Position numbers and translations under genes: made by a program
NCBI GenBank assembly: GCA_965116795.1
Contig: OZ220716.1
Coordinates: forward strand, 426,503 to 490,502
DNA from: Gammaproteobacteria bacterium
GTDB lineage: Bacteria; Pseudomonadota; Gammaproteobacteria; JAJFKG01
Direction of reading: 5' to 3'
DNA: 64,000 bases
Notes under the pieces: generated by a model
The model's database searches: none
What the model saw: the letters and a program-made list of their open reading frames with translations, nothing else
Told to the model about the DNA's origin: nothing
Shown here: positions 25,652-30,715 of the stretch, in pieces
Position numbering within the stretch: position 1 is the first letter of the stretch
Layout: each line of letters opens with the position of its first letter

Positions 25652-26530
25652 TCACAAATATTCAGTTGCACGTGTACAGAATGCTAAAAATGATACCCAT
25701 TCTTGAACATCAACTGCAAATGAAGCATGTGCTGTATCATAAAAATGATAGTAATAAGTGTGTTTGCTGTAAATAACGTTTACTTGCTCATTTGACCAAG
25801 CTGGAGGAATCTGATCAATTGCTATTTTCAAGTAGAATGGTCTAGCCTGTGCATCAAGTAGCAAATAGCTTCCTTGTTGATCTGTTAAGTAAAATTCTAC
25901 TATGTTTTTATCAAAACAAAGTGTCTGGAAAAAATCAACAAACGCGATGTCACTTAAGTAAGGCAATTGTGTCTGCAATCGCCGCACAATAGGTAACGAT
26001 GACTGCTGAAAATAATTATAAGCTAGTGTGGTAATCGCTGTTGTTAACTTTATGTAAGTAGTAGGTGATGCATCTTTTATAACATATCCATCAATGACAC
26101 CGTTGCTTAATGCCTGTTTAGCATCGCTTAATTCATTGGGTGTAATTAATAATAATTTTTTGTAGGTTGTTTGCCCGATTTGTTGGCAAAATTCGATTGC
26201 AGAATCAGGCATTATCATTGTATCGATCACGATAACAGGGATTTCCTCAAAGCGATGAGATGATGCTAATTCTGTTAACAATGAGGTCGCCAGCCCATCT
26301 GTTTGTTCTGCTTTATTGTTAACAACATTTTTTTCTAGCCAAGTTTGCTGTCCTACATAAGGCACATAACTGCTTTGTAGAAATTGCATTGCTTGCGTTG
26401 GTTCATCAAAAAGATGATAAAAAAACTGTGGCAGCAATTTATTGCGTAAATTGATCAGATCACGGTACTTTTCACCGATCAATAGTACTGTTCCAGCAAC
26501 ATAACATGTTGGCAGCACATAATTTGTCAT
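25652..26530 (-). CDS. LqsR-like atypical response regulator (orphan)
   Basis: PTCY N-terminus, RFEEI.VIVID..IMP and IVEFYL.D..GS.LLLD, as recalled from Legionella LqsR; SD AAGGAG before ATG at 26530. Confidence 0.72.
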   Translation of the reverse strand: MTNYVLPTCYVAGTVLLIGEKYRDLINLRNKLLPQFFYHLFDEPTQAMQFLQSSYVPYVGQQTWLEKNVVNNKAEQTDGLATSLLTELASSHRFEEIPVIVIDTMIMPDSAIEFCQQIGQTTYKKLLLITPNELSDAKQALSNGVIDGYVIKDASPTTYIKLTTAITTLAYNYFQQSSLPIVRRLQTQLPYLSDIAFVDFFQTLCFDKNIVEFYLTDQQGSYLLLDAQARPFYLKIAIDQIPPAWSNEQVNVIYSKHTYYYHFYDTAHASFAVDVQEWVSFLAFCTRATEYL

Positions 26531-26723
26531 GCAGACTCCTTTCCTTGGAAACAAAAGTAACTTAAACAATTCTCATATTGCATAACTCGTGCGCTGGAGG
26601 ATTCTACGAATTTTCATTTTGAATGTCACGTGTTTTTTTAACGAAAAAAATTGGCTTTGACTGTAAAAAAACATGGCAAATATCTTACAAAACACAGTGA
26701 CTTTTACGACTATTTAAGTCAAT

Positions 26724-26818
26724 TAACTTGCGTATAATGGTCACCGTCAAATTGCATAACTCCTTGTATTTTGTGCCAGCGCGTATATGACTCCCCGTTT
26801 TATACGCGCTTTTTTTAT
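26724..26818 (+). ncRNA. Putative sRNA gene, copy 1 (TATAAT, about 70-nt transcript, intrinsic terminator)
   Basis: TATAAT at 26733-26738; 10-bp stem AGCGCGTATA/TATACGCGCT followed by a T-run; 94/95 identical to copy 2. Confidence 0.68.
26778..26816 (+). terminator. Rho-independent terminator, copy 1
   Basis: 10-bp stem, 13-nt loop, T-run. Confidence 0.8.
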
Positions 26819-26928
26819 ATGGTAAGAAAAGGTTTCAGTATTGATCAAATGGGTAGTCATTGCTGCGTACAATACAAAGAGCTCATCACTCACAATAACT
26901 TAAGTCTTTTACTACTGTGCATGCTATG

Positions 26929-27023
26929 TAACTTGCTTATAATGGTCACCGTCAAATTGCATAACTCCTTGTATTTTGTGCCAGCGCGTATATGACTCCC
27001 CGTTTTATACGCGCTTTTTTTAT
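26929..27023 (+). ncRNA. Putative sRNA gene, copy 2 (205-bp offset from copy 1)
   Basis: TATAAT at 26938-26943; 26938-27023 is identical to 26733-26818. Confidence 0.68.
26983..27021 (+). terminator. Rho-independent terminator, copy 2
   Basis: Same hairpin and T-run as copy 1. Confidence 0.8.
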
Positions 27024-27238: not shown

Positions 27239-27550
27239 TTAATATTGACGTTCACGACCGCCACTACGACGACCACCGCGACCACCACCGCCGCCACCAG
27301 CATTTTCACGTGCACGGTCAACTTTCAATTTACGGCCTTCGTATTCATAGTCATTAAACTGCTCTAATGCAGCTGTCGCACCTGTTTTATCAACAAATGT
27401 AATAAAGGCATAGCCTTTTGAACGACCTGTTTCGCGATCACTAATCAGCCGAACTTCTTGTACTTCGCCGGCTTTACCAAATAGTGACCTCACATCTTCA
27501 TCAGTCGCAGAGAAAGGTAAATTCCCAACATAGAGTTTTGCAGTTTCCAT
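27239..27550 (-). CDS. Single-RRM RNA-binding protein with Gly/Arg-rich tail
   Basis: RNP2 LYVGNL, RNP1 KGYAFITF, DRETGRS and GGGGGGRGGRR tail. Confidence 0.93.
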   Translation of the reverse strand: METAKLYVGNLPFSATDEDVRSLFGKAGEVQEVRLISDRETGRSKGYAFITFVDKTGATAALEQFNDYEYEGRKLKVDRARENAGGGGGGRGGRRSGGRERQY

Positions 27551-27922: not shown

Positions 27923-27950
27923 TTGTGAACAAATCGATGTGGATGGTATA

Positions 27951-28763
27951 ATGACAATTAATACTCTTACCCAAACCGTATCACCTACCCACTCATTTGG
28001 GGCTAATTATCAACCACGTCGCTCAGTACGCCATCATTCATACTACCGCTTCAGAACATACACGGCTAGCGCTGGCAGTAATCAACTGGTCATAGCAGCA
28101 ACACCTTTATTTACCCTGATGATGGTACTGCAATACACTCAGTACGCAGCTAATGCAACACCACTACATCAACAAATAGTACATGAAATAAACGCCTTTG
28201 AAAGTGCAGCACTGGCGCAAGGTTATTCAGATGAATTCGTGATGGTGGCACGCTATGCATTATGTGCAGCTGTTGATGAAACCATGCGCATTACTCAATG
28301 GGGACAACAGCAGCAATGGGATCAATGTAATTTACTGTCTACGTTTCAACAAACGCTCTCTACCAATGATTGTTTCGTTTCCATTTTAGACCAATTACGT
28401 GATGATCCAAAACACTATATCGATATTTTAGAAATCATGTATCTGTGTTTAAGTCTTGGTTTTGAAAGTCGTTACCGTGAGCAACACCACGATAAGATTG
28501 AACAGTTAATCGATGAATTATATCGTCTGATTTGCAGCCAGCGTGGTCGCATTAAAAAGCGTTTATCTGTTTGCAAACATTTCACTAAGCAAGTTATCAA
28601 AAAACCTCGTGGTATTTCACTATGGCGTTCATTGATAACGGGTAGTATGTTAATTGGCATACTATATACAGTGTTTACATACACCACCTTTACGATTACT
28701 CAGCCGCTAACTCACACATTACAACAACTTACTGTGCATACCAAGATTGCACAGAGTAATTAA
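27951..28763 (+). CDS. dotU: DotU/IcmH (TssL family) protein
   Basis: AATPLF, ARYALCAAVDE, W....LL..F and LE..YLCLSLGFE motifs; C-terminal TM. Confidence 0.85.
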   Translation: MTINTLTQTVSPTHSFGANYQPRRSVRHHSYYRFRTYTASAGSNQLVIAATPLFTLMMVLQYTQYAANATPLHQQIVHEINAFESAALAQGYSDEFVMVARYALCAAVDETMRITQWGQQQQWDQCNLLSTFQQTLSTNDCFVSILDQLRDDPKHYIDILEIMYLCLSLGFESRYREQHHDKIEQLIDELYRLICSQRGRIKKRLSVCKHFTKQVIKKPRGISLWRSLITGSMLIGILYTVFTYTTFTITQPLTHTLQQLTVHTKIAQSN

Positions 28764-28765
28764 AC

Positions 28766-30715
28766 ATGGCAAAAAATCAAAAACGCATGTTAATCATGCA
28801 ATCATTAAGTTTTCTATTGTTATGTATAACCATCATGCTAGTCTGGCATGTTGGTGATCAACTGCATATTGCTGGGTATACCCCATTAGCAACATCATTA
28901 AGTCGCACAGTTGTTAACAGTCTATTTATCATTTGTTGGTTATCACTTATTTTAAGAAAAACCAAACAACCCTTTATTTTTTCGTCACGCCAAGCTAAAA
29001 CCAGAGCAATGTTAACATTACTGAATCACCGATTTTATGGTGCCATTCATTTTTTAAAACGCACATCGACAAAATCGAAAACACAAACAAATCATTTATA
29101 TGACTTACCTTGGTATTTAGTTATCGGGCCACCTGGCTCTGGTAAAACAACACTGCTAGCAAAATCAGGTTTATCATTCTCGCTAGCCAAACAACAAAAT
29201 AATATTCAATCAACAGAATTGTGTGACTGGTGGGTAAGTCGTGAAGCTGTGTTTTTAGATACAACTGGACAATTCTGCCCAACAACGAAATATATGCTGC
29301 ATTATAAAATACTGTGGCATCGCTTATTACAACTGATTAAAGAACAAGGCCAGACACGCTTAAATGGTATCATATTAGTGTTAGATTTACCGGGCATCGC
29401 TAAATTACCACACAACAAAAAATTATTGCTATACCATAATATACGTTCAAATTTGGCTGTTGTTAAAAAATGCTTACCAACTGAAATTCCTGTGTATTTG
29501 ATATGTAATCAGTGTGACCGCATTCTCGGTTTCCAGGAATTTTTTGCTGACCTTGGTAAAGAAGAACAGCAGCAAATATGGGGAACAACATTGGCTAACT
29601 CGTATAATATACGACAACGCTCATTATTAACCATTGTAAAAAAAGAATTTTCAGCATTACTTATGCGATTACATGAACGCTTACTATGGCGTTTACATCA
29701 TGAACGCAACCAACAAACAAGGCTATTAATTAAAGACTTTCCCGTACAGTTAGACATGCTCAGCAAACAAATACTATTAGCTATTAAACAGATGGCTAAT
29801 ACTAGCAAACTATTGTGGCTACGCGGCATTTACTTAACTAGCAGCACGCAAACTAACGATATAGAAGATTATGTATTATCTACGGTGCAAAAAAACTTAA
29901 ATTTGCCAGACATAGCTACTCATCGATTACAAACTGTATCTTATCATCAGCCAACTGCACTTTTTTCTAAACATTTTCTACAACAATTATTACAGCAAGA
30001 TCAACACTTAGTATCAAAGAATAATGCTCACTTAATTAAAACATGTGGACGGCATACAACCATTATTTCTGTTAGCATTATTGTATTTTATTGCGCATTT
30101 ACTTGGTCACAACAATTAAATCAATACAATAAACGTATTGTGCAGATTGAAAAAACACTTGCTAATTACCAAGTGCTCACTGCAATTATACAAAAATCTA
30201 CGCCAACTGATGTCAATCACGATACTCAACAGTCTACTCGTCATAGAGTAAGACTTATTCTACCTGCATTGAATGCAGCACAATCAGCTACAGATATGTT
30301 ATCAACGGTCCAATTAACACGGCTTACACGTTGGCTCAGCAACAATCATCAACAACTGTATGACAATGTACAACAACTCTATCAACAGGCACTGGTACAA
30401 TTACTCACACCAGAAATAATGCATATTGTGTATACGAAATTATTGAATACACATGAATATACATCAGCAGATTTTTACAGTGATTTAGAAGTATACTTAA
30501 TGCTAGGCCAACCCAAACACTTAAATTATAGCCTTGTACATGCTTGGCTAAATGCTTATTGGCAACAATTGTTTCCTGATGATGAAACAATCCAACAACA
30601 ATTAAAGCAACATACCTCAAATTGGTTAGCAGGCACATTAGAACCCATCAAATTAGATGATACGTTACTAGCAAAAATACATGAAGAAATAGAAAAGCAA
30701 CAGCAGAATAGTTAA
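28766..30715 (+). CDS. icmF: IcmF/TssM family protein, C-terminally short
   Basis: Two N-terminal TMs; LYDLPWYLVIGPPGSGKTT, CDWW, DTTG, LRGIYLTS and YLMLG motifs; only 649 aa. Confidence 0.85.
   Translation: MAKNQKRMLIMQSLSFLLLCITIMLVWHVGDQLHIAGYTPLATSLSRTVVNSLFIICWLSLILRKTKQPFIFSSRQAKTRAMLTLLNHRFYGAIHFLKRTSTKSKTQTNHLYDLPWYLVIGPPGSGKTTLLAKSGLSFSLAKQQNNIQSTELCDWWVSREAVFLDTTGQFCPTTKYMLHYKILWHRLLQLIKEQGQTRLNGIILVLDLPGIAKLPHNKKLLLYHNIRSNLAVVKKCLPTEIPVYLICNQCDRILGFQEFFADLGKEEQQQIWGTTLANSYNIRQRSLLTIVKKEFSALLMRLHERLLWRLHHERNQQTRLLIKDFPVQLDMLSKQILLAIKQMANTSKLLWLRGIYLTSSTQTNDIEDYVLSTVQKNLNLPDIATHRLQTVSYHQPTALFSKHFLQQLLQQDQHLVSKNNAHLIKTCGRHTTIISVSIIVFYCAFTWSQQLNQYNKRIVQIEKTLANYQVLTAIIQKSTPTDVNHDTQQSTRHRVRLILPALNAAQSATDMLSTVQLTRLTRWLSNNHQQLYDNVQQLYQQALVQLLTPEIMHIVYTKLLNTHEYTSADFYSDLEVYLMLGQPKHLNYSLVHAWLNAYWQQLFPDDETIQQQLKQHTSNWLAGTLEPIKLDDTLLAKIHEEIEKQQQNS

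Follow-up and report, generated by a model that had tools for sequence, protein, structure and literature searches.

A family of predicted sibling small RNAs with putative pairing sites in the leader of a neighbouring LqsR-family regulator gene in a gammaproteobacterial genus

Genomic context of the locus

The window analysed here is a stretch of 64,000 nt (G000:426503-490502) from a single-contig, 2.45-Mb gammaproteobacterial genome (G000, the source genome), and positions are those of the window unless a genome coordinate is written out. On the minus strand it encodes a 292-aa response regulator of the LqsR family (25652..26530), divergent from two tandem plus-strand cassettes that are predicted to be small RNA (sRNA) genes (copy 1, 26746..26816; copy 2, 26951..27021, identical to copy 1). 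Convergent with these lies a minus-strand gene for a single-RRM RNA-binding protein (27239..27550; PF00076, E 2.6e-24). The search for relatives provided one genome of the same genus (G001, the congener) and one of the same family (G002), the others being of the same class only. The gene order yicC-regulator-sRNA-RRM, with a syntenic RRM gene, is identical in the source genome and the congener, and the tandem sRNA duplication at this locus is found in the former and missing from the latter. Contigs from sequencing runs represented the same strain, with one changed letter. The window also carries a dotU/icmH and shortened icmF gene pair on the plus strand (27939-30715; PF09850, PF14331, PF06761); a search for DotA gave no match anywhere, controls included, and so carries no information.

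The 12-mer ATTGCATAACTC, on which the original prediction was built, was found as claimed at 26577-26588 in the regulator leader and at 26751-26762 and 26956-26967 in the two cassettes. At no more than one mismatch there are four matches (three of them exact) against 0.75 expected, and the leader match is longer than the 12-mer, reaching 15 of 16 nt (26573-26588). Throughout the 2.45-Mb genome the exact 12-mer occurs six times, namely in five sRNA copies and in the regulator leader. A perfect complement of at least 12 nt to the 24-nt sRNA core between -70 and +12 was present in 2 of 2112 called genes in the source genome and 1 of 1315 in the congener; such a complement in a leader is rare, not unique, and it is the adjacency of the gene that makes the leader match unlikely to have arisen by chance.

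The LqsR-family regulator

The regulator was matched by phmmer to Legionella LqsR (PDB 6sy9, E 1.9e-28), and its predicted model (pLDDT 85.5) aligned with that structure over the full length (TM 0.78, E 5e-21, 26% identity), sharing the receiver-plus-output fold of LqsR and Ralstonia PhcX. It had no Pfam Response_reg match. The receiver retains the phospho-acceptor Asp (D103) and the Lys; according to the alignment, the acidic pair is replaced by GE/GD and the Thr/Ser is lost in all five members of its small clade, which share 47-57% identity. Judged from sequence and predicted structure, the divergent gene is thus an LqsR-family regulator with a putatively degenerate receiver. LqsR-like genes were detected in 27 of 400 genomes of the class, among which the orthologue of this regulator was found only in the congener; three further orthologues are P0002, P0003 and P0005. 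There is no kinase gene among its immediate neighbours, and it is not part of an Lqs cluster, as yicC and the RRM gene, rather than lqsA or lqsS, lie beside it; the three PF00155 matches in the source genome resemble housekeeping enzymes by eye.

The regulator lacks an AAA+ or known DNA-binding domain. The output domain of LqsR is GGDEF-like, with no cyclase activity detected and an unresolved mechanism, according to PMC10653808, and therefore the regulator is unlikely to bind the sRNA promoters itself as their direct activator. A LytTR-like DNA-binding output, also considered for LqsR, proved wrong, since the cited structure is GGDEF-like. Two further LqsR paralogues, each adjoining a histidine kinase gene, occur in the source genome (C1:72281-74387 and 2145719-2148157). 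Their acidic pairs are intact where seen, neither has a reciprocal match in the congener, and one of the adjoining kinases has LuxN as its best NCBIfam match, far below the cut-off.

A family of predicted sibling sRNAs

BLAST and a covariance model identified five predicted sRNA copies in the source genome and six in the congener. All 11 share one layout, in which a 5′ core of 24 nt, invariant in the alignment, is followed by a U-rich linker and then a hairpin with a U tail; in copy 1 the unit is about 71 nt long and its intrinsic terminator spans 26778-26816. Conservation sets in sharply 7 nt past the -10 element, which reads TATAAT in 10 of the 11 copies. The unit folds with a z of -5.5, and 4 of the 12 terminator pairs are changed on both sides among the copies, giving 11 cells with two-sided change, a level matched by 0 of 500 shuffles. 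The 5′ hairpin is invariant and so uninformative on covariation. The seed reads as the complement of a Shine-Dalgarno (SD) sequence and then of AUG. No GGA motif occurs in the predicted transcript, so it should not act as a CsrA sponge. An hfq gene is present in the source genome.

The cassettes thus combine their own promoter, a short non-coding unit, an intrinsic terminator with a U tail (from sequence and covariation) and several paralogues sharing a conserved seed, and they are predicted to be genes for Hfq-type trans-acting sibling sRNAs. Their sRNA-like appearance had been noted in the original prediction, and that reading is borne out by the copies, the conserved core, the promoters and the covarying terminator. 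A small minus-strand ORF in the cassette was rejected, given its SD-ATG spacing of 2 nt, its unconserved length and a terminator facing the opposite way. The first six core bases were also considered as a -10 element under the sigma-E consensus; this was rejected, the matching -35 being absent from the six copies of the congener.

One copy with its promoter (G000:C1:2092632-2092706; L030/L119) lies on the opposite strand within a phage- or GTA-like head-tail gene module, which has no orthologues in the congener (gene identities by eye). In addition, a weak covariance-model match (G000:C1:874780-874843; L121, E 0.017), with an anti-SD motif and a terminator, is situated directly 3′ of a fis-like gene (named by eye); it is possibly a 3′-end-derived small RNA, or a mere terminator.

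Searches beyond the two genomes returned no family member outside the genus in the collections and genomes covered. Rfam gave no match at E≤1 for the regulator/sRNA locus (best E 4.3) and tRNA only for nine other loci. Pattern scanning of genome contigs produced 45 loci, five of them with true copies (six copies) and no new lineage. The same scan yielded 0 true copies in 29 metagenome loci, and none of 29 viral loci was convincing (the best, core-selected and without a -10, scored 30.9 bits). The covariance model matched in 2 of 41 genomes, found nothing below E 0.4 in five rescored genomes, and among 151 genomes matched one, the source genome itself; two order-level searches covered one genome each. 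No match to the family below E 0.2 was present at 24 further LqsR loci. Two kinds of unrelated element share a 17-mer with the family by chance, namely a multi-copy repeat in one metagenome contig (L103/L104) and a conserved element in deltaproteobacterial records and similar metagenome contigs (L045, L046, L058, L077, L083, L098, L105).

Promoters of the sRNAs and a candidate activator

The predicted promoter of copy 1 (26684..26738, plus strand) comprises CTTACA at -62, CTTTTAC at -45 and TATAAT at -13 and has no canonical -35; that of copy 2 (26889..26943, plus strand) reads CTCACA, CTTTTAC and TATAAT. These elements stand at fixed distances in all 11 copies, with CTTTT(A/T)CC near -45 in common. 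CTTACA at -62 is perfect in 7 of the 11, and a weaker repeat occurs about 22 nt further upstream. A matrix built over -66..-7 selects sRNA genes only. Part of this motif could reflect common descent of the copies.

The 18-bp GacA box pattern fits the 11 sRNA promoters best at -74, a likeness to the GacA/LetA-driven Csr/Rsm sRNAs, as the rsmY box is located at -75 (PMC4950607). As TGTAAG-N6-CTTACA, the box matches at 4-10 of 12 positions, and only its right half, perfect in 7 of 11, is conserved. The sRNAs differ from Csr/Rsm sRNAs in this half-box, in the missing GGA and in that the genus has a separate sponge-like RNA, whose upstream region gave a borderline result with the sRNA-promoter matrix (region p ~0.05-0.3). 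The source genome encodes a GacA/UvrY-like protein (238 bits, below the 280 cut-off), whose gene adjoins a uvrC-like gene (named by eye), and also a PmrA/QseB-like one. From these sequence features, GacA as activator of the sRNAs is a lead, not a result. Direct repeats of the CpxR and PmrA types fitted the sRNA promoters worse than the GacA half-box.

The sponge-like RNA is a GGA-rich CsrB/Rsm-like element with a terminator and an upstream TGTAAG box (G000:C1:580635-581085, L302; G001 L157:235-680). Conserved between the two genomes, it precedes a metH-like gene (named by eye) and matches Rfam PrrB_RsmZ weakly (E 0.014, below gathering). There are four csrA paralogues in the source genome and six in the congener (L264, L265, L268, L275).

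Predicted pairing sites in the regulator leader

A sigma70-type promoter is predicted for the regulator at 26601..26629 on the minus strand (10 of 12 consensus positions), with transcription starting at about 26594-26595. The promoter scan returned four sites against 10.1 expected from shuffles, and GTGA plus TAGAAT are kept in the congener at 17-nt spacing. With the -35/-10 pair at 26629-26601, the 12-mer would fall inside the regulator transcript.

Two target sites are predicted in this leader, both on the minus strand. Site 1 (26573..26588), near the mRNA 5′ end, would pair with sRNA nt 2-17 through 15 of 16 pairs, 12 of them contiguous (duplex -19.5 kcal/mol, net -7.3 to -7.5). Site 2 (26526..26541) covers the regulator SD and start codon and would pair perfectly with sRNA nt 14-20, and with nt 1-20 when bulges are allowed (duplex -17.6 kcal/mol, net -4.0 to -5.2); the SD-pairing ACTCCTT proposed earlier is indeed found here, at 26535-26541. 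Site 2 is retained in the congener with 12 pairs and one bulged sRNA base. In the congener the leader is shorter by 21 nt and does not contain the exact 12-mer; its upstream site pairs with sRNA nt 4-22, all three substitutions being G-U compatible, an argument with some circularity, as such alignments are preferred by the duplex program. A perfect 9-bp hairpin capped by a GGG loop (L002:1458-1478) stands at the start of that leader and hides the upstream site, and a loop-loop contact of this hairpin with the CCU loop of the sRNA is conceivable. At 36 other LqsR-family loci the longest repeat between leader and upstream region was 6-9 nt, against 12 here; this comparison left out L014 (no match) and L286 (contig-end artefact).

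Ranking of the regulator among predicted targets

Genes were called by script (2112 in the source genome and 1392 in 1.50 Mb of the congener), giving 985 reciprocal best hits, of which 709 had matching starts. In the source genome alone, the regulator ranked 16th among the 2112 genes when -70..+20 was scored and 60th for the SD. By raw duplex energy over the 709 orthologue pairs, it ranked first upstream, eighth in the start region and first combined (z 4.46, the next gene reaching 3.28), in a comparison of two genomes with score windows picked after the sites had been seen. The congener upstream site was 34th of 1315 by raw duplex. When the seed was shuffled 56 times with the anti-SD kept, the regulator never exceeded 3.17 against the 4.46 observed; the top-scoring gene, whichever it was, attained 4.46 in 3 of the 56.

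Once accessibility was included, site 1 of the source genome was still first of 709 upstream windows, the two SD sites came 99th and 100th of 709, and the congener upstream site dropped to 221st because it lies inside its own 9-bp hairpin; the regulator was then fourth combined and 24th by best single site. The leader had been put forward as an sRNA target in the original prediction, and the top rank by raw energy and the conserved SD site support that claim. Taken together, these sequence comparisons suggest that the regulator mRNA is probably targeted by the sRNA. As a generic anti-SD/anti-AUG sequence, the seed probably has further mRNA targets. The main csrA start region gave raw duplexes of -20.6 and -19.5 kcal/mol with the sRNA core, and csrA was set aside as a target at 41st of 709 after accessibility. 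Further top conserved start-region predictions in the source genome (C1:390233-390838, 1951415-1953322, 419186-420058 and 2364882-2365466) correspond by eye to a peroxiredoxin, HtpG, a CorC-like protein and an RpoE-like sigma factor.

Proposed mechanism and alternative explanations

The reading that we prefer, at about an even chance, is that the sRNA would repress translation of the regulator at the SD, primed by the upstream site. A shared activator, for which the GacA/UvrY-like regulator is the best candidate, would switch on all sRNA copies at their sigma70 promoters without a -35. One sRNA would bind the 5′-proximal site 1, the strongest, and melt a predicted helix between site 1 and the start codon; a second could then bind the SD and AUG about 1.4 kcal/mol more easily and block the ribosome. 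Two molecules are invoked because the stretches of the sRNA that pair with site 1 (nt 2-17) and site 2 (nt 1-20) overlap, and one molecule therefore cannot fill both. In the free leader of the source genome, site 1 is predicted to be paired with the leader's own start codon at all five mRNA lengths tried, and occupancy of site 1 lowers the SD-AUG opening cost from 8.3 to 6.9 kcal/mol. In cofolding, the probability that the AUG is unpaired is 0.02 for the leader by itself, 0.50 when one sRNA is added and 0.05 when two are, and that of the SD is 0.41, 0.22 and 0.02, respectively. The AUG opening at 1:1 points to activation, against repression; it is the SD site that forms the conserved element, which favours repression with site 1 as the entry site.

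Activation would follow if site 1 sequesters the start codon within the leader and the sRNA releases it by anti-antisense pairing, as in the activation of rpoS by DsrA. The persistent helix and the AUG opening fit such a model, and so does the position of site 1, as activating sites usually lie upstream of the RBS (PMC7534054). The gain in opening of the ribosome footprint, however, is only 0.6-1.5 kcal/mol, the SD is less open at 1:1, the leader fold is ordinary (z -0.68), and in the congener the helix is absent and the SD site is better, all of which makes activation improbable. Somewhat less doubtful, while still unlikely, is that the sRNA family is real and that site 1 arose by chance or was left behind by a local duplication, with the regulator no more than one of many weak anti-SD targets. 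A tandem duplication does exist at this locus and is missing from the congener, a perfect 12-nt match is also present in one other gene of the source genome, the SD site does not stand out when accessibility is included, and the congener upstream site is occluded. A relic sits poorly, however, with a match that is limited to the invariant seed: masking the 16-mer leaves no similarity between the leader and either cassette (p 0.18 and 0.22), and a pairing-compatible site lies at a similar place in the congener.

The original prediction combined direct occlusion of the SD with coupling through an upstream ORF (uORF), and these two parts fared differently: the SD site is conserved, whereas the coupling finds no support. 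In the latter, the sRNA would block initiation at an 18-codon uORF (minus strand, 26583-26527, MQYENCLSYFCFQGKESA), whose translation would be coupled to the regulator by a TGA overlapping its ATG as ATGA, after the model of RyhB/uof-fur, where the start of a uORF preceding a regulator gene is likewise covered by the sRNA site (PMC7534054). The geometry is exactly as predicted, and the uORF may be species-specific. Pairing of its upstream sequence with the 16S tail gives +0.7 kcal/mol, so that the weak SD once ascribed to it is in fact none; for the strong SD that the regulator itself possesses the value is -8.2, against a genome median of -5.5. Only about 12 nt of predicted leader precede the uORF AUG, and in the congener the frame carries GTG-TAA without ATGA, the uORF being kept in 0 of 1 orthologue leaders; missing SD and missing conservation set it apart from uof. 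When the spacer was shuffled 20000 times between a fixed AUG and ATGA, 8.2% of the shuffles gave a frame ending at the regulator start; an A directly follows the start codon in 39% of called genes. As the seed is itself anti-AUG, any perfect match to it must contain AUG, and the uORF (26527..26583) is, on sequence grounds, probably an incidental by-product of this seed; regulation by coupling is distinctly improbable. Finally, the 12-16-mer might act as a DNA operator placed shortly after the two divergent start sites, since it occupies +2..+17 in each sRNA gene and roughly +7..+23 in the regulator, where the congener leader has a perfect 9-bp inverted repeat. Against this, the genome has no other exact copy of the 12-mer, in the sRNA genes it is part of an invariant 24-nt core followed by a covarying RNA hairpin, and the DNA sequence is not kept in the congener leader, which makes an operator very improbable.

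Relation to known systems

An sRNA gene next to a response-regulator gene is familiar from Vibrio, where qrr1 adjoins luxO. Qrr1-5, as described in PMC4211561, are four to five sibling sRNAs that share a conserved core and base-pair with a response-regulator mRNA, and both features are seen here, the mRNA as a predicted target. The differences are that no Rfam sequence match was found, that the promoters here are TATAAT-type and not sigma54 elements, and that the neighbour is of the LqsR type and not a LuxO-type enhancer-binding protein; the predicted sRNA is therefore not a Qrr, differing in sequence, sigma factor and regulator family. The same source describes OmrA/OmrB, which repress ompR, and the CiaR csRNAs of streptococci, present in two to six copies. 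These are likewise tandem or dispersed siblings, in their case under a response regulator, whereas the sequences here are unrelated, the activator is a candidate and the target regulator belongs to another family.

In Legionella, translation of lqsR is controlled via its RBS by CsrA downstream of LetA/Rsm (PMC5338858). The regulator described here differs from Legionella LqsR in its putatively degenerate receiver, in its predicted control by base pairing and not by CsrA, and in having no adjacent kinase gene; by analogy, such base-pairing control would be a variant of the LetA/Rsm-CsrA-lqsR wiring. A broader and more speculative picture, which we consider doubtful, is a convergent Qrr-like circuit in which GacA/LetA would drive both a CsrA sponge and five to six sibling sRNAs that set the level of an LqsR-family pseudo-receiver; the two-site leader might then work as a dose-dependent switch, the first sRNA opening the start codon and the second closing it.

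The literature search, with subscription papers outside its scope, returned no case of base-pairing control over an LqsR-family regulator. As far as the sequences indicate, the sibling sRNA family is real and uncatalogued and has a credible adjacent target. With a breadth of two genomes of one genus, the finding adds this family and a candidate base-pairing control of an LqsR-family regulator, and if GacA proves to be the activator, the GacA regulon would reach beyond CsrA sponges.
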